The position numbers were made by a program, and so were the translations under genes. Below the pieces are notes generated by a model that had not been told where the DNA came from, did no database searches, and saw only the letters and a program-made list of their open reading frames with translations. Positions 13,038 through 41,849 of a stretch of 64,000 bases of DNA are shown here, one piece after another (position 1 is the stretch's first letter; each line of letters starts with the position of its first letter). The stretch is taken from assembly GCA_934120675.1 (NCBI GenBank), contig CAKOUU010000001.1, positions 17,926-81,925 of the forward strand, written 5' to 3'. The stretch is from an uncultured Clostridia bacterium (GTDB taxonomy: Bacteria; Bacillota; Clostridia; TANB77; CAG-508).

Positions 13038-13160
13038 AAAATTTAATCCCTCTATAGAGAGTACTCCACATAAAGATTTTCTACTTATTGCTGCTTCCTT
13101 CCGGACCTGACAAGGTTCATAGGTCTCTATTGGATTACCCTCTATACAAAGATTAAATTT
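13038..13160 (-). ncRNA. ffs: Signal recognition particle RNA (small, 4.5S-like)
   Basis: The minus strand contains GTCAGGTCCGGAAGGAAGCAGC, the invariant SRP domain IV motif. It is enclosed by a long closing stem (AAATTTAATC...GATTAAATTT). The position upstream of dnaX is typical of Firmicutes. Confidence 0.85.
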
Positions 13161-14048: not shown

Positions 14049-14124
<76 letters not shown>

Positions 14125-20300: not shown

Positions 20301-22883
20301 ATATTGTGGATATGCTGTTCTTATATTCTCATTTGACCAATATTTTTTTGTATTTTCTGCTTGTGCAATCATAGACATTTTAACAATTTGTTCATTTATA
20401 TTTTCATCAAAATTACCTAATGTTAAATTAAATTTAATATTAGCTGTAGCTCCGACAGATAAAGAATCTAACTTGAATTTTAAAATACGATCATTGTAAG
20501 ATTTTTCTATTAGTTTTGAATTATCATCGGTTCCCAAATACTCAATATTATAATTCATTTCTTTTTGAAATTCTATGCTATTTACCTCAATATTTTTTAA
20601 TTCATGATCACTCATATTCTTTATAAAAACATCATAATAAAATGAATCTGGTTGATCTCTACCTATATAAGATTTTACTTCAATATTTAATTCTGCCTTT
20701 TTTACAACATTGTTCAAAGTATCTTCTTGAATTTTATTATTATTTACAACAGTCTTAATTTTATTGCTAATATTATTTTCTATTGTTCCTCCTTCAAGAT
20801 TTTTTACAACAACTTCATAACTTTCTTCTTTTGTTTCCCCAGCTTTCAAATCTGTAATACTATTAAATACATATTCTTTAACATTTTCGTTTTTTACATA
20901 TTCATAGTTTTCCCCCCAATAAGTTCCTCTATCTATTGTGGCGTATGCTGTTCCATCAGGTACCTCACCTGAAATTTTTATTCCTGTAACATCTTTTTGA
21001 GTATTGTTTGTTACTTTAACAGTGTATTTTATTACCTGTTCCTCATATACAGTATCACCATCATTCAATATTTGACTTCCAACTTGTGCCTTTGAATTAA
21101 TTGATATATCAACATTTTCTTCTTCAGCACTTTGTGATAAAACATTTCTTGTATTATCGTTTGTAATTGAATTAATTTTTACTTGTCCTTCTCTTGTTTC
21201 TATTTCTTTTCCATTATTATAATATGTTAAACCAACTGGTACATCATTTGTTTCAGCATCTTTGCTTATAATTACTGTTGCCGGTATAACAACATTAGCC
21301 CCAGCTACAATAGAATTCAAGCAATATTTGTTTTGTGTTCCATTTAATTCAATATTTAAAATTTTATAGCCTTTTTGCTCAATAACTTTTGCATTTTTTA
21401 TATTTAAGCTATTGCCATATAATAATGCTACATCTCCTAAAATTACTTTTTCAACTTCCTGTGGTAATTTTATTTGAATTACAGGGTTACTAAACAATTC
21501 ATATTCTGGACCATTTGTAACTAATGTTGCTGTAAAAGTAACATCATTTTGAACATTATTAGTCCAATTAGCATTATCAACAGATAATTCTACATCTGAC
21601 TTAGCATCTTTAACATCTGCTAAATTGCTATTTTCAAAATTATAAAATTCTACCTGTTTTACTGTTTCAACATCTTTTGATTCTCCAGTACTTTCATCAA
21701 TAACCTTTTCAGTCTTTTTAACATTATTTATGCAAGAAATCTGATTTTTTGTTTCAACTTTTGTAACATCAGCATCTTTCATCGTTTCTTTGATTTGTTT
21801 AACATTTTGAACATTAATTTCACCAATTTTTTCAGGTTTGCTCAATTTAAATGTTAACTCTGTTAATTCATTTTCATAATTAACTGTAACATATCCATTT
21901 TCATCAGTTTCAGAATCCTTATTAATTTCTGTTAAACAATTGCCATCTTTATCGAAAATTTGTAAAGTTCCATTTTCACCAAGTTCATTTAAAACCTCGT
22001 CTTTACTAATTTTTGTACTTTTGTACACTATCTCTTCTGTTTCTATTTCTTTATCTTTATTATTTACAAATAAATTTTTTGTATTTATTTTAACTTCATC
22101 AGCAATTTCTTTGTAACTAACTTGAATGTTTAAATTTTCTGTATATTCAGTTCTATATGTTGTATTATTTTTGACATTTGAACGAATATATCCATTATAA
22201 ATATCACTTGTTGTAACATTTGTAGAAATTAACCCTGATACATTTTCTGTAACTTCAAATTTTTGAGAAATATCTTGAGTTTTAATCGTTTTATTATCAT
22301 CTTTCTTTAAACCAATATATAGTTTTCCAGAAAAATCTAATTCACGTTTTTCATTTTTATCATTATAGCAATTTGAACTATAATATAAATTTATTTGATA
22401 TTCATCTCTTGCATCTGCAACGTTTTCAGAATATACATTTCCATTTTCATCTGCTTTATTTTCAGTAATTAATTTAATTTCTCCATTGTCTTTGTTATAA
22501 GAACAATTAAAATCTTTTCCCTTTTCATCTCCATTTGTTAATTTTGTTGATTTTACAACAACTTCAACTTTTTCTGGATATTCTTCATTGACCTTAGGAG
22601 TTTTTAAAATAACATTTGTTGCTTCTATTGGTACATGTTCTTGTCCATCTTGATATTCAATTCCAGTTTTCAAATTAGCTTGAACCATTAATCCAGGAGT
22701 ATCTCCAACTTTGTAATTAACATACTTCTCTAGATTTAATTCATATATTGCATTAATTTTTGACTCATCTATAATACTTTGCACTGCATCTATTGCTGTA
22801 GATATTACAAGCATTAATGAACTATTAATTAGCATCATCATTATAACTAAAATTGAAATTATTTTTGCAATTAGATTTTTCAT
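14355..22883 (-). CDS. Giant cell-surface protein (2842 aa): DUF11-like and SdrD-B/Cna-B/SpaA-like repeats, two sorting-signal-like segments
   Basis: Signal peptide, TIGR01451-like repeats (VKYTVKVTNNTQKDVTGIKISGEVPDGT), SdrD-B-like GTVWVDSNKNGQRDSGE, and SpaA/Cna-B-like GQIEVIKKDKDTGAVLNNAKIRLT...GKYKVEEISTPSGY. The C-terminus is PPTG plus a TM segment plus KK. An internal SVKTG plus TM plus KKYK is followed by a signal-peptide-like segment. Confidence 0.85.
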   Translation of the reverse strand: MKNLIAKIISILVIMMMLINSSLMLVISTAIDAVQSIIDESKINAIYELNLEKYVNYKVGDTPGLMVQANLKTGIEYQDGQEHVPIEATNVILKTPKVNEEYPEKVEVVVKSTKLTNGDEKGKDFNCSYNKDNGEIKLITENKADENGNVYSENVADARDEYQINLYYSSNCYNDKNEKRELDFSGKLYIGLKKDDNKTIKTQDISQKFEVTENVSGLISTNVTTSDIYNGYIRSNVKNNTTYRTEYTENLNIQVSYKEIADEVKINTKNLFVNNKDKEIETEEIVYKSTKISKDEVLNELGENGTLQIFDKDGNCLTEINKDSETDENGYVTVNYENELTELTFKLSKPEKIGEINVQNVKQIKETMKDADVTKVETKNQISCINNVKKTEKVIDESTGESKDVETVKQVEFYNFENSNLADVKDAKSDVELSVDNANWTNNVQNDVTFTATLVTNGPEYELFSNPVIQIKLPQEVEKVILGDVALLYGNSLNIKNAKVIEQKGYKILNIELNGTQNKYCLNSIVAGANVVIPATVIISKDAETNDVPVGLTYYNNGKEIETREGQVKINSITNDNTRNVLSQSAEEENVDISINSKAQVGSQILNDGDTVYEEQVIKYTVKVTNNTQKDVTGIKISGEVPDGTAYATIDRGTYWGENYEYVKNENVKEYVFNSITDLKAGETKEESYEVVVKNLEGGTIENNISNKIKTVVNNNKIQEDTLNNVVKKAELNIEVKSYIGRDQPDSFYYDVFIKNMSDHELKNIEVNSIEFQKEMNYNIEYLGTDDNSKLIEKSYNDRILKFKLDSLSVGATANIKFNLTLGNFDENINEQIVKMSMIAQAENTKKYWSNENIRTAYPQYVTITQSCEKEGEKLKYGEEIEYKVNVKNESKTRVYVNVQDYLPDGLEGISAEYDKYVLKESNHVYTEYDINEEENLQCDRVKETINLQYQVNGKTGFDSTVLIPAGKTLNFVIKAKAGFVTETKEVSNFATVYGDYITSKTSNIIKVYVLANDEDSTPDPDNPNNPDNPDNPDSPDNPDNPNPTPGDDKTYDISGTVWVDSNKNGQRDSGEQLLSDVIIKLYDADSNAIVKKKDGTNTIIKTNSNGKYDFTNVKKGNYLVLFEFDTGKYAITDYKKNGVREEINSDAILKSVAIDGEEKSVGLTDKLSVKNSNIENIDLGLVEKEEFDMSLNKSILNLKLTYDGTEKEYNYNESKLVKVEIPAKKIDGASIEVEYQLEIKNEGNADGYVNEIVDYIPEGFTFDSSKNSGWTKKGTNMVIYNGISGIVIKTGESKKIILYLTRSLTSNTIGTLTNKTEINKCISVNGTKDIDSTEGNKNESEDDFSQAQVIISVKTGIVRNILIFIIILLVILFSVYMVKKYKFKGTIMFLFVLIMGSGCIFNQVLALDIRVCCITDKTRNFHADDGEENHAHRYYCIDSGHPQCGKAAHYYTYLRSSSNKTGSSGPTLQKSISISTQDSNNISISQQSNGYCRVGPYKVSVNYGGKISISGSATKTDGTKYDFFAGGSDNTQSGNIVTSGIEKINYFNVADNGTYSFYVYVDNSTTKINDVKVTVDVDGVYGYSEWGTTATTYYCSSVAAGGKKTHNGRSCKETDGGADYTLKGTSFACQRMRINGTYSNSWTSAGSTSTNFGSKDLVGQIEVIKKDKDTGAVLNNAKIRLTKPGGGTEEKLTDGSGKVTFSNLLAGKYKVEEISTPSGYNLGLQDDSDKKKDITVTAGKTEKTELKNKQYGNLKVIKKDEDTGNTSLGEIKLSGVQFKLYVLKNNTKYYLKETSPNKYSYSDFSETDKNKAKTLTTDSNAQFEVDNLPVYEGKNKITYYIEEYALPDNLSEYYKIKTDPDTIQLVNGTTQTKDIKNKQIYLDVSGYVWEDTIDKNKQSTRNDLYDADRNETLINGITVRLKNTKSETLQTTTTGSQGEYMFRKVKIDELSDYYIEFEYNGLKYQNVTKKLDKDNGSKAVENTTLRTDFNNSYSTISGGNEKNSSGTKGYSLDQNGNITNSLVYTNGTYSSSLVPNTAYTAGSTKNSVIPQDGSTGASIKANTKDAEYSLDKWKAGVTEIKDVNLGIALRNQPDIAIATDLNNMHMTINGYEHTYNFGQRAKYINAGLPNNELNSAYDSLLDGFNVSVKNNQGNYRDVTYSRGIYDSYIAFTKDNPDDEARLKIYLTYQISLKNESSIPFVKVKGLRNYSDSQLEFIDSYIEDGTNTDKKVTWSKVGTTNDSVRNIWQSGEVDTFIEPGKMATVYLTYELNTNAIISLADLQANGGEVYVVGNTTEITAYSSYDSNKNAYAGIDTDSAPENISYGDISTYEDDTDSTPDLHIKRKTPKSISGLVFEDEANLTLTKERIGDGKYEQGNNGVNDVKVELVNFDNGSDYSDANVITLYTLGDGGNVIKTPADTKTTSDGRFEFVGIIPGEYVTKYTYGKKGDMQSKIITKNVTTQDYKSTIITNDKFKQAVQNRSEYWYQDTELENCSSALDDWNRRSAINQNLKYNSYTVKDNYDNNSDAESNHYMIATTGKMTFPIEDKKDQTTNYDYVEPSRIYNIKFGIVERPRQSLEVNKEISYIKLTLQNGTVLVEGDPRTTTMNYVTYPQNGILKVEADNNLIQGSTLQVEYTISVKNKSETDYNTESYYKYGTPGNTPVSLTVNSIVDYMDEGLISPYNESSPDWKLKEGVNIKNSLSQKAYDVIKNRKNILLNEWNKEIRQNETQYLKVEASKIVSASDDNLYENYTEILSSTSDVGRFYGEEINGSWKNYTPGNYDLTNDTHESDDNGYDHISRATLTIVPPTGSDNHVIYYIIGISCLIVIAGGVVIIKKFVL
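19751..19832 (-). repeat. 9-nt tandem coding repeat (PDN/PDS linker)
   Basis: Plus-strand units cggattatc / tggattatc encode PDPDNPNNPDNPDNPDSPDNPDNPNPTP. Confidence 0.8.
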
Positions 22884-28645: not shown

Positions 28646-29905
28646 TTGGAAAAATTAGTAATAACAGGACCAACACCTTTAAAAGGCGAAGTAGAAATAA
28701 GTGGAGCAAAGAATGCAGCAGTAGCAATATTACCAGCTACTTTATTAATAGATGGAATTTGTACTATAAACAATGTTCCAAATATAAGTGATGTCCAAAT
28801 TTTATGCAAAATTCTTGAACAAATGGGAGCAAAAATTAATTGGACAGATAAAAATGAATTAACAATTGATACAAGAAATATAACTACAACACAAGCACCT
28901 TTAGATTTAACTAGCAAATTTAGAGCTTCTTATTATTTAATAGGAGCAATGCTTGGTAGAACTGGAGATATCGAAGTAGGTATGCCAGGTGGTTGTAATT
29001 TAGGAGCAAGACCTATAGACCAACATATAAAAGGTTTCGAATTATTAGGAGCAAATGTTGAAGTCGGAAAAGGAACAATTACAGCAAAAGCAAAATGTCT
29101 AAATGGTGCACATATTTATATGGATGTTGTTTCAGTTGGAGCAACTATAAATATAATGTTAGCAAGTGTTCTAGCAAATGGAACTACAACTATAGATAAT
29201 GCTGCAAAAGAGCCTCATATAGTTGATGTTGCAAACTTCTTAAACACTATGGGTGCAGACATAAGAGGTGCAGGAACAGATGTAATAAAAATAAATGGTG
29301 TAGAAAAGTTACATGGAGACGCAACATACTCTGTTGTTCCAGACCAAATAGAAGCTGGTACATTTATGTTAGCAGCAATGGCTTCAAAAGGAGATTTACT
29401 TATAAAAAATTGTATAACAAAACATTTAGAGCCATTAACAGCAAAAATTCTAGAAATTGGTGGAAATGTTGAAGATAATGGAGATAGCATTAGAGTTTGG
29501 TACAGTAAAAGACCTAACAAAGCAACTATAAAAACATTACCTTACCCAGGATTTCCAACAGATTTACAACCTCAAATGGGCGTTGTTTTATCAACAGCAA
29601 ATGGTACAAGTATTATAAATGAAAGTATCTGGGAGTCAAGATTCCAATATACAGCTGAATTAAATAAAATGGGAGCAAAAATAACAGCTCAAGGCAAAAC
29701 AGCTATATTCGAAGGTGTTGATGAATTGTTTGGAGCTCCAGTATATTCAACAGATTTAAGAGCAGGAGCAGCATTAATAATTGCTGGCATATCTGCAAAT
29801 GGTATAACAGAAGTTTATAACTTAAAACATATCGATAGAGGATATGAAAACATAGAAGAAAAATTCAGAAAAATTGGTGCAAATATCCAAAGAGTAAATG
29901 AATAA
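28646..29905 (+). CDS. murA: UDP-N-acetylglucosamine 1-carboxyvinyltransferase
   Basis: TTG start after AGGGGGA. LVITGPTPLKGEVEISGAKNAA N-terminus, with the EPSP-synthase fold pattern throughout. Confidence 0.95.
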   Translation: MEKLVITGPTPLKGEVEISGAKNAAVAILPATLLIDGICTINNVPNISDVQILCKILEQMGAKINWTDKNELTIDTRNITTTQAPLDLTSKFRASYYLIGAMLGRTGDIEVGMPGGCNLGARPIDQHIKGFELLGANVEVGKGTITAKAKCLNGAHIYMDVVSVGATINIMLASVLANGTTTIDNAAKEPHIVDVANFLNTMGADIRGAGTDVIKINGVEKLHGDATYSVVPDQIEAGTFMLAAMASKGDLLIKNCITKHLEPLTAKILEIGGNVEDNGDSIRVWYSKRPNKATIKTLPYPGFPTDLQPQMGVVLSTANGTSIINESIWESRFQYTAELNKMGAKITAQGKTAIFEGVDELFGAPVYSTDLRAGAALIIAGISANGITEVYNLKHIDRGYENIEEKFRKIGANIQRVNE

Positions 29906-34565: not shown

Positions 34566-35315
34566 TTATTTATTTTTTTTATTATATATTTTATAAATTT
34601 CCTCTGTATAATTTCCATCTTTTTTATAAATATATAAATCTTCCTTAACTTTCAAAAAAGGCTTTGCATTTTTTACACCTTTAATTAGCACCAATTTAGG
34701 TGATTCATTTATATGTGAACATACAAATCTTATTTCTTTTGGTTCAATTTTATATTGTCTCATATGTGAAATAATATCAACCAATCTTTCCGGCCTGTGA
34801 ACCATATAAAATTCTCCTTTATCTTTTAACAATTTATTAGATACTTTTATATAATCTTCTAACTTTGCTAATACCTCATGTCTTGAAATTAATTTTTTTT
34901 CTTCTTCGTTTACTATTCCTGTATTTTCTTTTTTATATGGTGGATTTGTAACTATAACATCAAAAGAATTTTTTTCATATATTTTATCCAAATTAATAAT
35001 ATTTTCATTTATTATTTCAAATTTATTTTCTAAATTATTTAATTTTGAACTTCTTTTTGCCATATCTGCGACTTCTTTTTGAACCTCTACCCCTATAATT
35101 TTTTCTAAATTTGTTTTTCCACATAATAAAATTGATATTATTCCTGTACCTGTTCCTAAATCTAATACTTTTGCATTTTTCTTTATATTTTTTGAAAAGT
35201 CTGATAACAATACTGCATCAATTCCAAAACAAAAGCCTTTTGTATTTTGTATTATTTTTAAACCTTTAAATTCCAAGTCATCTATTCTTTCATTCTCTTT
35301 TAATTCTATTTCCAT
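34566..35315 (-). CDS. SAM-dependent N6-adenine methyltransferase (tRNA1Val m6A37 TrmN6/YfiC-like)
   Basis: SAM motif VLDLGTGTGI and catalytic TNPPY. Confidence 0.75.
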   Translation of the reverse strand: MEIELKENERIDDLEFKGLKIIQNTKGFCFGIDAVLLSDFSKNIKKNAKVLDLGTGTGIISILLCGKTNLEKIIGVEVQKEVADMAKRSSKLNNLENKFEIINENIINLDKIYEKNSFDVIVTNPPYKKENTGIVNEEEKKLISRHEVLAKLEDYIKVSNKLLKDKGEFYMVHRPERLVDIISHMRQYKIEPKEIRFVCSHINESPKLVLIKGVKNAKPFLKVKEDLYIYKKDGNYTEEIYKIYNKKNK

Positions 35316-35425
35316 ATTTTTCTCTTTCTTTTTTATTTTATATTAAAATGTTACAACAATTTTAGATAAAAAACAAGTATTTATTATAATTTAATTTTTA
35401 CAAATTAGTATATATTTATTTACTA

Positions 35426-35454
35426 TTGACAATAAATAAATTTTATATTAATAT
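35426..35454 (+). promoter_or_regulatory. Sigma-A-type promoter for small ORF A
   Basis: TTGACA (35426-35431), a 17-nt spacer, then TAATAT (35449-35454). Confidence 0.55.
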
Positions 35455-35495
35455 TAAATCGCCGACTTGCTTAGTGACAGGAAGGAGGTTATCTT

Positions 35496-35564
35496 TTGAA
35501 ACCATTCACAAAATTGCTAGCATTATATATAGTTTACTTAATTGTAAAACATTTTGATGATTAG
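35496..35564 (+). CDS. 22-aa peptide A (candidate type I toxin-like peptide)
   Basis: TTG start 6 nt after GGAAGGAGGT. Peptide is MKPFTKLLALYIVYLIVKHFDD. A paralog of identical length is at 36876, and a terminator follows directly. Confidence 0.5.
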   Translation: MKPFTKLLALYIVYLIVKHFDD

Positions 35565-35569
35565 CATAA

Positions 35570-35641
35570 AAAAAGACTAGGATTTGTTTAGCGACACCTA
35601 GTCTTTTTTAATTATCTTTGAAACCATTTATTGCAATTGCT
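35570..35641 (-). ncRNA. Predicted convergent sRNA A (about 70 nt)
   Basis: It would run from the minus-strand promoter at 35648-35676 to terminator A. Its 5' part is antisense to a near-duplicate (35612-35642) of the peptide-A translation start region (35489-35519). Confidence 0.45.
35574..35604. terminator. Bidirectional terminator A
   Basis: AGACTAGG ... CCTAGTCT stem with an A-run upstream and a T-run downstream. Confidence 0.75.
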
Positions 35642-35647
35642 AAATAC

Positions 35648-35676
35648 ATATTAGCACATAATTTATTATATGTCAA
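35648..35676 (-). promoter_or_regulatory. Sigma-A-type promoter for sRNA A
   Basis: Minus strand: TTGACA (35676-35671), 17 nt, then TAATAT (35653-35648). Confidence 0.55.
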
Positions 35677-35771
35677 ATTTTTCAACTTATTCATCCAAAT
35701 ACATATTCACCATTTTTCCATTTATTTAATAATATAGTATAAATATTTTAATAAAAGAAAGAAGTGTTTCT

Positions 35772-36062
35772 ATGCCAACTTTATATAGATGTGAAAAAAA
35801 AAATAATAATACTTGCAAATGCCGTCTGCCTCCTCCTCCACACAAAATTTTAGCACCACCGCCATCACCTCCTCCAAAACCACCACCAAAAAAGCCATCT
35901 CCCCTTAAAAAGAAAAAACTTAATTTTAAAACTTGCAAAAAAAATACAATTAATTCTTTAAATGAAGTTGAACATTTTTTAAATGATTTTCAAGGTTTTT
36001 GGGATTATGTTAAATTATATAAAAATGTTTCAAATATTTTTAATAGAAAAAGAAAAGACTAG
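35772..36062 (+). CDS. Proline/lysine-rich small protein (96 aa)
   Basis: ORF MPTLYRCEKKNNNTCKCRLPPPPHKILAPPPSPPPKPPPKKPSPLKKKK... Its stop codon lies inside terminator B. The SD is weak. Confidence 0.45.
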   Translation: MPTLYRCEKKNNNTCKCRLPPPPHKILAPPPSPPPKPPPKKPSPLKKKKLNFKTCKKNTINSLNEVEHFLNDFQGFWDYVKLYKNVSNIFNRKRKD

Positions 36063-36125
36063 GATTGCTTTGGTAGGCTCCTAGTCTTTTTTGTTATTTT
36101 TTTGCACGATTATTTTTTAATTGCT
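36050..36125 (-). ncRNA. Predicted convergent sRNA B (about 75 nt)
   Basis: It would run from the promoter at 36132-36160 to terminator B. Its 5' end AGCAATT is shared with sRNA A. Confidence 0.4.
36056..36087. terminator. Bidirectional terminator B
   Basis: AGACTAGGA ... TCCTAGTCT stem with the same stem sequence as terminators A and C. Confidence 0.75.
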
Positions 36126-36131
36126 AAATAT

Positions 36132-36160
36132 ATATTAACACATACTTTACCATATGTCAA
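36132..36160 (-). promoter_or_regulatory. Sigma-A-type promoter for sRNA B
   Basis: Minus strand: TTGACA (36160-36155), 17 nt, then TAATAT (36137-36132). Confidence 0.5.
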
Positions 36161-36170
36161 ATTTTTAAAA

Positions 36171-36710
36171 CTATTTTCTCACATAAAACTCCTCAAAATC
36201 ACTAGATGCCTGACCATTAACCAAGAATTTAACCTTATTAACCTCATTTAACTCAGTAACAGTATTAACAATTGAATAAATTAAATTATTTTTAAGCATA
36301 CTATCATCTTTATTATAATTCAAAATCTCAGAAGAAAAATCCAAAGTTAAACATTCTTTATCTAATGAAACATTTAAAAGTTTAGTATTTTCAGGAATAA
36401 CAACTTTCAATTTATCATTTTTAGGACCAGAAATTAAAAGCTCAACCAAAGTATTATAAGGTGATTTTATTAAATCTTTTACATTTACAAGTCTTGCTTC
36501 TGGTTTTAAAAGCCCTGTTTCTTTATCTGCAAAATATAAGCTTACAATTGTTTCCCTTGACTGATCATCCGATATTTCTTCCTGTGGTATATATTCACGT
36601 TGAATTTCATTATTTTTCTTTTGTTTGACAATTTTAATTGCGAAATATCCTATAACTACAATTAAAATTACTGAAATTATAAATAAAATTAAAATCCTTT
36701 TATTTTTCAT
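36171..36710 (-). CDS. GerMN-domain (GerM-like) sporulation/germination lipoprotein-like protein
   Basis: TM anchor followed by VSLYFADKETGLLKPEARLV ... LLNVSLDKECLTLDFS ... VKFLVNGQ, typical of the GerMN domain. The ATG at 36710 follows GGGAGGA. Confidence 0.7.
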   Translation of the reverse strand: MKNKRILILFIISVILIVVIGYFAIKIVKQKKNNEIQREYIPQEEISDDQSRETIVSLYFADKETGLLKPEARLVNVKDLIKSPYNTLVELLISGPKNDKLKVVIPENTKLLNVSLDKECLTLDFSSEILNYNKDDSMLKNNLIYSIVNTVTELNEVNKVKFLVNGQASSDFEEFYVRK

Positions 36711-36804
36711 AGCGTCCTCCCTATTTTTAATATTTATACTTAATACTATTATTTGTTTGTCCAAAATATACTAAAAATTTTTAAGCTAAATATTTATTAT
36801 ATAG

Positions 36805-36833
36805 TTGACTTTTACAAATAAATATTATACTAT
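36805..36833 (+). promoter_or_regulatory. Sigma-A-type promoter for small ORF C
   Basis: TTGACT (36805-36810), 17 nt, then TACTAT (36828-36833). The predicted transcript starts at CCGACTT, as in copy A. Confidence 0.5.
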
Positions 36834-36875
36834 ATTCATACCGACTTACTCTAGTGGGTAGGAAGGAGGTACTAA

Positions 36876-36944
36876 GTGAAAGAACTACTAAAAGTGTTGA
36901 AACTTTATTTAATTTACTTAATTGTAAAGAACTTAAAGGATTAG
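36876..36944 (+). CDS. 22-aa peptide C (paralog of peptide A)
   Basis: GTG start 5 nt after GGAAGGAGGT. Peptide is MKELLKVLKLYLIYLIVKNLKD. It shares the YLIVK core and length with peptide A. Confidence 0.5.
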   Translation: MKELLKVLKLYLIYLIVKNLKD

Positions 36945-36949
36945 ACAAA

Positions 36950-37029
36950 AGAAAAAGACTAGGAAAAGTTTTCAGAGACTTCCTAGTCTTTTTTTGATAC
37001 TTCGTTTCAGAACTACTTTTTTGACGTCT
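36950..37029 (-). ncRNA. Predicted convergent sRNA C (about 80 nt)
   Basis: It would run from the promoter at 37036-37064 to terminator C. It contains AGUAGUUCU and AGUAUC, complementary to AGAACUACU and GGUACU around the GTG start of peptide C. Confidence 0.4.
36956..36989. terminator. Bidirectional terminator C
   Basis: AGACTAGGAA ... TTCCTAGTCT stem with A-run and T-run flanks. Confidence 0.75.
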
Positions 37030-37035
37030 GAATAT

Positions 37036-37064
37036 ATTATAACTCATATTTTATTATATGTCAA
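37036..37064 (-). promoter_or_regulatory. Sigma-A-type promoter for sRNA C
   Basis: Minus strand: TTGACA (37064-37059), 17 nt, then TATAAT (37041-37036). Confidence 0.55.
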
Positions 37065-37100
37065 ATAAAATTTTTTAGTCCTATTTCCATTTTTTTACAT

Positions 37101-37129
37101 TTGACAAATGGTCATTTTCCGTATAAAAT
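37101..37129 (+). promoter_or_regulatory. Promoter for the 1441-aa activase/dehydratase gene
   Basis: TTGACA (37101-37106), 17 nt, then TAAAAT (37124-37129). Confidence 0.45.
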
Positions 37130-37224
37130 TAGGGTGTATAAATTATTTAAAAAACCTCATAGCCCTAACAAAAAACAGTAATTTATACATGGGATGTTTA
37201 AACGAGCGAGAGGAGAAATGAATT

Positions 37225-41601: not shown

Positions 41602-41630
41602 TTGACATATAATAAAATATGTAGTATACT
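41602..41630 (+). promoter_or_regulatory. Sigma-A-type promoter for sRNA D
   Basis: TTGACA (41602-41607), 17 nt, then TATACT (41625-41630). The flanking ATTGACATATAATAAAATATG closely matches the sRNA A and sRNA C promoters. Confidence 0.55.
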
Positions 41631-41636
41631 ACAAGT

Positions 41637-41712
41637 AGCTTAAGCAAAATATAAAAAATTCTTAATGTCTTTCATATAATAAAAAGAACAGGATGGCGGT
41701 CCTGTTCTTTTT
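41637..41712 (+). ncRNA. Predicted convergent sRNA D (about 75 nt)
   Basis: It would run from the promoter at 41602 to terminator D. CUUAAUGUCUUUCAU (41661-41675) can form a 15-bp duplex with one G-U pair against AUGAAGGACAUUAAG, the start codon region of peptide D. Confidence 0.5.
41685..41708. terminator. Bidirectional terminator D
   Basis: AGAACAGGA tggcgg TCCTGTTCT with A-run and T-run flanks. Confidence 0.75.
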
Positions 41713-41717
41713 AAACT

Positions 41718-41789
41718 TCAATCACTTTCCAAAAACTCTAGAAGTTTTAATATTAAAATGATTTTTAGTAGTTCCTTAATGTCCTTCAT
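41718..41789 (-). CDS. 23-aa peptide D (related to peptides A and C)
   Basis: ATG 6 nt after GAAAGGAGGTGA. Peptide is MKDIKELLKIILILKLLEFLESD. Its promoter is TTGTAA (41846-41841), 17 nt, TATAAT (41823-41818). A terminator follows directly. Confidence 0.5.
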   Translation of the reverse strand: MKDIKELLKIILILKLLEFLESD

Positions 41790-41849
41790 TCGTTCACCTC
41801 CTTTCGAAGGCAAACCAATTATATAATAAATATTTACTTATTACAACTA

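Follow-up and report, generated by a model that had tools for sequence, protein, structure and literature searches.

The question that this locus raises is why the translation-start region of a short peptide gene (peptide A) should recur just downstream of the terminator of that gene, inside the gene of a predicted antisense small RNA (sRNA). The window, by which we mean the whole stretch of 64,000 nucleotides from an uncultured Clostridia bacterium that was analyzed, has a G+C content of 27%, and all positions given without a locus label are window positions. An initial annotation made from the letters of the window had proposed that the duplicated segment would allow the sRNA, besides overlapping at the terminator, to base-pair by its 5' end with the peptide mRNA where the ribosome loads. 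The parts of this module, module A, are as follows.

35426-35454, plus strand: promoter of the peptide mRNA (TTGACA, 17 nt, TAATAT), found by consensus scan, with a predicted start at about 35461
35461-35609, plus strand: predicted toxin-like peptide mRNA of about 149 nt, with 5' hairpin, SD, ORF and terminator
35480-35488, plus strand: SD, GGAAGGAGG
35489-35519, plus strand: repeat copy 1, covering the SD-start spacer, the TTG start and codons 2-8; predicted sRNA target
35496-35564, plus strand: ORF of the 22-aa peptide A, MKPFTKLLALYIVYLIVKHFDD, with a TTG start
35569-35609, both strands: bidirectional intrinsic terminator common to mRNA and sRNA, an A-run and a T-run flanking the stem on both strands
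35612-35642, plus strand: repeat copy 2, the minus-strand transcript of which is the predicted single-stranded sRNA 5' tail
35568-35641, minus strand: predicted antisense sRNA A of about 74 nt (both ends predicted), a 32-nt unpaired 5' tail followed by the terminator hairpin
35648-35676, minus strand: sRNA promoter, TTGACA at 35676-35671, 17 nt, TG-extended TAATAT at 35653-35648

The two copies of the repeat read TTATCTTTTGAAACCATTCACAAAATTGCTA (35489-35519) and TTATCTTTGAAACCATTTATTGCAATTGCTA (35612-35642) on the plus strand, both exactly as first quoted. They had been described as matching at about 25 of 31 positions with one 1-nt gap; the repeat itself stood, while the count had to be corrected to 26 identical of 32 alignment columns with two 1-nt gaps, by global or local alignment. 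The second copy was correctly placed between terminator A (hairpin AGACTAGG...CCTAGTCT at 35574-35604, T-run to 35609) and the minus-strand promoter at 35648-35676, and it begins three bases past the T-run. Since the predicted sRNA start is A35641, sRNA A would bear the reverse complement of 35612-35641, that is, of the whole repeat minus its last base, at its 5' end, in agreement with the earlier proposal. The mRNA of module A has a fold energy of -40 kcal/mol (z = -4.6), and its promoter is kept in the orthologues of two related species (L003 and L004). The sRNA 5' tails are unpaired in the predicted folds, and the sRNA promoter sequence is almost invariant between modules.

Pairing of the 5' 32 nt of sRNA A with mRNA A was computed with RNAduplex and gave -26.4 kcal/mol over 35486-35519. 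The comparison with dinucleotide-shuffled controls had been set beforehand as the test that could refute the pairing, and 1000 such shuffles were used per test; the shuffles of module A gave -12.0 ± 2.4 kcal/mol (z = -5.9), with 0/1000 as good as the real sequence. The module A repeat is above chance.

Module A is accompanied in the window by two further modules and by the sRNA gene of another, as listed here.

36805-37064, plus strand: module C, same part order as A, with promoter at 36805-36833 and SD at 36861-36869
36876-36944, plus strand: module C ORF, MKELLKVLKLYLIYLIVKNLKD, with a GTG start
about 36950-36995, both strands: module C terminator, a G+C-rich stem with A-run and T-run
36996-37017, plus strand: module C repeat copy 2, which matches the C start region and differs from A
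37041-37036 (-10) and 37064-37059 (-35), minus strand: module C sRNA promoter, predicted start at about 37029
36044-36160, minus strand: module B, sRNA gene only, terminator core at 36056-36087 and 5' tail at 36093-36125
36137-36132 (-10) and 36160-36155 (-35), minus strand: module B sRNA promoter, from the promoter scan
about 41602-41846, minus strand: module D, a divergent paralogue and fourth module, just downstream of a 1441-aa activase gene
41846-41841 (-35) and 41823-41818 (-10), minus strand: module D toxin promoter, predicted from sequence
41801-41797, minus strand: module D SD, with the 23-aa ORF at 41789-41718, MKDIKELLKIILILKLLEFLESD
41681-41712, both strands: module D terminator, a stem with A-run and T-run
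41675-41659, minus strand: module D repeat copy 2, the repeat pair being ATGAAGGACATTAAGGAA vs ATGAAAGACATTAAGAA
41637-41712, plus strand: module D predicted sRNA, with promoter -35 at 41602-41607 and -10 at 41625-41630

Modules A, B and C have the terminator and the minus-strand promoter in common, and their terminator stems are nearly identical; the stems at 35569-35609, about 36950-36995 and 41681-41712 all fold as a terminator on both strands. A weaker form of the repeat had been noticed in copy C, and this was borne out: it consists of GGTACT/GATACT blocks and AGAACTACT, and its cognate duplex reached -21.5 kcal/mol (z = -4.0), with 1/1000 shuffles as good. The cognate duplex of module D had an energy of -21.7 kcal/mol over -1..+18. 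All cross-pairings among A, B and C were between -6.6 and -12.6 kcal/mol. A generic scan of the 64 kb for an SD, an ORF of 15-40 codons, a hairpin and a repeat recovered exactly A, C and D plus one false match, the candidate at 29055, which falls within a murA-like gene; a promoter-like motif found at 21412 was likewise rejected, being within coding sequence. Rfam searches of 35300-37200 at E <= 10 and of the whole window at the gathering threshold gave only sub-threshold chance matches for the modules; elsewhere in the window (13050-13146, 14052-14124 and 60514-60764) Rfam identified a small SRP RNA and three tRNA genes which are unrelated to the modules. The exact protein of the methyltransferase adjoining module A was found on human-gut metagenome contigs, and the gene callers applied to those public contigs had annotated no gene within the module; contigs of this species are in ERZ14773639 and ERZ27287283.

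The history of modules B and C could be followed by comparison with L003 and L004, which are syntenic sibling species and the only ones in which tblastn with the window neighbour proteins gave matches. Both siblings carry, after a 96-residue ORF, a complete module B (L003:3060-3360 and L004:3060-3370) with the peptides MHDLIKLLKLILIYYIVKHLSD and MKDLLDLLKLILIYYIIKYLSK, respectively, each with its own matching repeat. In the window a deletion at this site has taken away the promoter and ORF of the toxin and joined the 96-residue ORF, at its end, to the terminator, leaving the sRNA gene intact. The tail of the window sRNA B showed no complementarity to the upstream 96-residue Pro-rich ORF (-7.2 kcal/mol, z = +0.8), and with the start region of the L003 module B it still gave -19.6 kcal/mol. 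Because the toxin parts are deleted and the tail still pairs with the L003 start region, copy B is, as judged from this comparison, an orphan antisense RNA whose toxin gene has been lost by deletion. The same deletion altered the C-terminus of the 96-aa ORF from ...NRKKY* in the siblings to ...NRKRKD* in the window. This Pro/Lys-rich ORF (35772-36062, …PPPPHKILAPPPSPPPKPPPKKPSP…) is called as a gene on public contigs; it had no Pfam or NCBIfam match, and its identity to the sibling species is only 81-86% vs 90-99% for its neighbours. Module C, with about 290 bp, is present in the window (36770-37080) and missing from the equivalent GerM-activase spacer of the sibling L004 (L004:3940-4010). In the window two short strings that resemble each other, AAAAATTTTTAAG and AAAATTTTTTAG, flank it; L004 has AAAAATTTAG there only once, which suggests either an insertion with target duplication or a deletion between short repeats.

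Relatives of the modules were sought with both peptides (A and C), back-translated, with one genome taken per species. Eleven loci were found, all in metagenome-assembled genomes of uncultured Clostridium or Clostridia, and together with extra copies these gave 14 modules from about 12 lineages, all with one order of parts. The full set was present at 11/11 loci: a promoter, an SD-bearing 5' UTR of about 35 nt, an ORF of 22 codons, a terminator, a start-region copy and a minus-strand promoter; the start codon is TTG, GTG or ATG, the start-region copy follows directly after the T-run, and the spacer of the sRNA promoter is 17 nt. Promoters were predicted on both strands in A, C and D and are conserved in 14/14 modules, with a -35 of TTGACA in 13/14 and a 17-nt spacer, and the 22-aa ORF is kept in 13 modules. 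The loci other than those of the siblings are flanked by housekeeping-looking ORFs, which we take, from their N-termini, to be UvrA-, GuaA- and SecA-like. At L010:2780-3060 a second module of the same layout stands directly downstream of the first; its peptide, MTLLKILLKIMAIVVDLIVLVLELIEHLHK, is longer (30 aa) and more typically hydrophobic, and its repeat pair is TGACTTTGCTA / TGACTTTACTA. The family thus includes peptides that differ in length. The 5' end of the sRNA of window module D (AGCUUAAGCAAA) is similar to that of this second L010 module. The sRNA can occur without a peptide gene, as in copy B, and no module was a toxin without an sRNA promoter. Searches of plasmid and viral sequences gave no relatives: blastn of module A against plasmids returned one 47-nt chance-level match to a Bacillus plasmid, tblastn of peptide C against plasmids and against phages found none, and a scan of viral contigs with the peptide alignment found nothing.

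Further evidence on the question comes from the way in which the two copies of the repeat change together. In all 14 modules, from about 12 lineages, the copy past the terminator agrees with the start region of the same module, although the sequence differs by lineage. In module A the start-region copy is TTATCTTTTGAAACCATT and the post-terminator copy TTATCTTTGAAACCATT; in L007 these are TTACTTTTTTGAAAAGTTT and TTACTTTTTGAAAAGTTT; L012 has GGAACTATTA in both copies and L010 has AGAACTACTA in both, and the difference between the latter two is synonymous at the peptide level and reappears in the sRNA gene. Co-variation was assessed from counts anchored on the start codon together with a cognate/non-cognate matrix; the anchoring was adopted because a MAFFT alignment of the chimeric mRNA and sRNA sequences was out of structural register between clades. 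Positions +6..+10 were paired in 13-14/14 modules by 3-4 different pair types, and changes on both sides were seen at most positions from -11 to +22; RNAduplex optimises pairing, which makes these paired counts somewhat favourable, and the non-cognate matrix serves as their control. Transitions between the repeat copies that were G·U-tolerated numbered 11 vs 15 that were not, and there were only 3 isolated mismatches. Constraint along the 31-nt repeat is apparently uneven, the third helix being less constrained: in that helix, formed by mRNA +17..+23 and the outermost 5' nucleotides of the sRNA, L005, L006 and L007 have A·C or C·A mismatches. In the C-clade modules (window 36876-36884; L009, L010, L012 and L013) two or three bases directly following the first two start-codon bases (G-A-A) are always unpaired in the predicted duplex, and the post-terminator copy has TTT or TTC at this place.

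In a 14 x 15 matrix of duplex energies between start regions and sRNA tails the cognate tail, or that of a near-identical orthologue, was the best in 14/14 rows. Cognate energies were -18 to -29 kcal/mol, compared to -5 to -15 kcal/mol for most non-cognate combinations, and the cognate duplex spanned roughly -10 to +24 around the start codon. The terminator stems of A, B and C are nearly identical, so the terminators cannot give specificity, and copy specificity is, on the predicted pairing, supplied by the repeat and not by the terminator. The proposal that the predicted sRNA could pair with the ribosome-loading site thus gained the backing of the 14-module co-variation, of the cognate partner ranking best in every row and of the unstructured tails.

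In our view the modules are probably cassettes in the style of a par-like type I toxin-antitoxin system, in which the sRNA would block translation of the peptide. A sigma-70-type promoter would give an mRNA of about 150 nt for a hydrophobic peptide of 22-23 residues, and a convergent promoter about 215 bp away would give an antisense sRNA of about 75-90 nt, both transcripts ending at one common bidirectional terminator. Just past this terminator each predicted cassette repeats its start region, namely the spacer, the start codon and the first 4-8 codons; being transcribed in the opposite direction, this copy would provide an unstructured sRNA tail complementary to about -10..+24 of the mRNA. 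First contact would probably be made between the complementary terminator loops, after which pairing could zip over the start region in two or three helices, and this duplex would exclude the 30S subunit and leave the peptide untranslated. Each sRNA would be specific for its own mRNA, so several copies could coexist in a genome. We infer the transcript ends, the binding order and the translational repression from sequence. A 5' hairpin over part of the SD may act as a second brake: a CCUUUC/GAAAGG hairpin is clear in the predicted folds of L005, L008, L009, L012, L013 and window D, and in window modules A and C the predicted hairpin covers only the first two G of the SD. The SD-pairing CCUUUC stands at the very 5' end of the mRNA in L005, L008, L009, L012 and L013, and window D has CCUUC (41810-41797). 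In L005 and L008 the CCUUUC could instead pair with a nearer AAAGG, a possible two-state switch. No long-range 5' helix was found in the MFE folds of the module A and C mRNAs.

This arrangement has a close counterpart in the par locus of plasmid pAD1 of Enterococcus faecalis and its chromosomal homologues, with convergent promoters, a common bidirectional terminator, a 5' stem-loop over the SD and repeats DRa/DRb that are transcribed in opposite directions, such that RNA II sequesters the fst initiation region (PMC7472228; also PMC4147584). The start-region repeat is what defines the RNA I-RNA II family of par(pAD1)/Fst (PMC7472228), and the mechanism is therefore well precedented and not surprising. 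The modules described here have the convergent promoters, the common bidirectional terminator and the start-region repeats past the terminator in common with par; a predicted stem-loop over the SD is clear in some of them and only partial in window modules A and C. The par repeats are poorly conserved between paralogues, and cross-talk is thereby avoided (PMC7472228; also PMC4147584), a copy specificity that the present modules share. No counterpart of the 5' upstream helix that stabilises RNA I of par was seen in the MFE folds here, and the YUNR U-turn in the terminator loop is missing from some par homologues (PMC7472228). A plasmid locus annotated as encoding an Fst family toxin was put through the same steps as a positive control. 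Its repeat, GTGTTATTTGT and GATTTAATGTCGTT, also begins directly after the terminator, and its duplex (-10..+32, -38.9 kcal/mol) has three helices with a small loop just after the start codon (L014:401-410), comparable to that of the C-clade modules.

The peptides themselves resemble those of par much less than the architecture does. Within clades pN/pS is about 0.2, codons 9-22 outside the pairing region included, and the ORF length of these modules is fixed at 22 codons; low pN/pS and fixed length together indicate that the ORF is a real gene, and the predicted peptides are by these measures under purifying selection. Fst/Ldr toxins combine a hydrophobic transmembrane domain and a charged tail at the C-terminus with a PXXXG(C) motif and a Trp that is conserved (PMC7472228). 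The Fst toxin is of about 30-33 aa, as compared to 22-23 aa here, and the present peptides have neither the PXXXG(C) motif nor a Trp nor a full-length transmembrane stretch. Their longest uncharged run is 5-11 residues, their helical hydrophobic moment (amphipathicity) is low, and they have in common a short, polar or charged C-terminus, K-H/N-x-x-D. The architecture is the same as that of par, but the putative toxin falls outside the Fst family: 12 peptides gave 0 matches in Pfam at E <= 10; none matched NCBIfam, in a run in which a genuine Fst matched NF033608 at 1e-8, or PDB sequences; and the hhalign probability of the peptide alignment against Fst was 3.8%. A full-text literature search for the peptide strings found no paper. 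On sequence features the peptides do not look like classic, obvious single-pass type I membrane toxins. That they would be toxic we infer from the architecture and from the asymmetric decay, in which an sRNA without its peptide is seen and the reverse never is.

Other type I systems are less similar. The SprA1/SprA1AS (PepA1) locus of Staphylococcus aureus belongs to the par family (PMC4147584). Its peptide, PepA1, is a 30-aa transmembrane member of the Fst family and has no sequence relation to the peptides here. SprA1AS is reportedly (Sayed et al., 2012) an antisense RNA that overlaps the 3' end of the mRNA and represses translation via a separate 5' domain at the ribosome-binding site/start codon. 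The txpA/RatA and bsrG/SR4 systems of Bacillus subtilis likewise involve small hydrophobic peptides on a Firmicute chromosome; they act by 3' overlap and RNA decay, SR4 also inducing a structural change at the RBS, and, unlike the modules here, they are described without a second, separate copy of the start region (PMC3834814; PMC4147584). The type I systems of Clostridioides difficile (CD2517.1-RCd8 and others) likewise come from Clostridia, and their genes converge and overlap and are present in several copies in a genome (PMC6563280). Their toxins, however, measure 34-59 aa, are predicted to have a transmembrane domain, end in a Lys-rich tail and show no sequence similarity to the peptides here, the modules are often in prophages or beside CRISPR arrays, and no start-region repeat past a common terminator is described for them (PMC6563280). 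Among Clostridia, characterised type I systems are limited to these of C. difficile, and reports of Fst-like sequences to two species (PMC6563280). The hosts here are uncultured gut Clostridia.

The repeat could in principle be accessory or irrelevant, with the sRNA working mainly via its 3' terminator overlap and leading to decay by RNase III or another route. The terminators are fully complementary by construction, and the Bacillus systems with convergent 3' overlaps act largely by mRNA decay (PMC4147584; PMC3834814). We nevertheless regard this as improbable, since an irrelevant repeat would not keep correlated changes in about 12 lineages nor cognate specificity, and the near-identical stems of A, B and C cannot give the specificity that the repeat has. 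Another reading gives the repeat no RNA-RNA role and takes it as a non-functional by-product, such as a duplication scar or recombination site, or as a pair of protein-binding sites. It draws on the behavior of the modules as discrete units of gain and loss, C being absent from the same site of L004, and on the short AAAATTTTT(A)AG-like repeats that flank module C in the window. The copies of a scar would decay independently, but the observed copies co-vary, synonymous codon positions included, and a protein operator would stay conserved across species and would not be free to change. Gene conversion is an unlikely homogeniser, as we would judge from the repeat being too short (about 18-30 nt, interrupted), and the repeat always extends from directly behind the terminator as far as the predicted sRNA start. 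We find this reading very hard to credit.

The identity of the product leaves more room for doubt. The 22-residue peptide could be a harmless regulatory or membrane-associated micro-protein gated by the sRNA, in which case the modules would be antisense-regulated small-protein genes and not toxin-antitoxin systems; the peptides, having neither a full-length transmembrane segment nor a toxin family match, are compatible with this. However, a multi-copy state with copy-specific antisense RNAs is typical of type I toxin-antitoxin systems, both strands have constitutive-looking consensus promoters, a predicted 5' hairpin would sequester the SD, the peptide gene is lost with the sRNA retained and never the reverse, and the related neighbouring module in L010 encodes a more typical hydrophobic peptide of 30 residues. 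A harmless product thus seems to us unlikely, and a par-like type I cassette in which the sRNA would block translation of a toxin remains the reading that we prefer.

What is new here is the peptide family and its host group; the par-type principle of type I control is already known. It is possible, and we propose it only tentatively, that a par-type scaffold of convergent promoters, common terminator and start-region repeat is here combined with a peptide that is unrelated to Fst and too short and charge-interrupted to span a membrane. If so, the scaffold would either have evolved independently or swap its cargo; alternatively, the 22-residue peptides would be type I effectors of a new class, acting otherwise than by forming a pore and expanded to several copy-specific paralogues per genome. 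The modules would add an unannotated, multi-copy family of antisense-controlled micro-peptides in uncultured Clostridia that are abundant in the human and animal gut, and would indicate that regulation of the par type does not depend on an Fst-type toxin. The co-variation found in nature across about 12 lineages may serve as a map of the base pairs that matter for recognition and copy specificity, and the orphan sRNA B and the presence or absence of module C offer snapshots of cassette gain and decay. For annotation, the modules exemplify 69-bp genes and sRNAs of about 75 nt that are missed by current pipelines.
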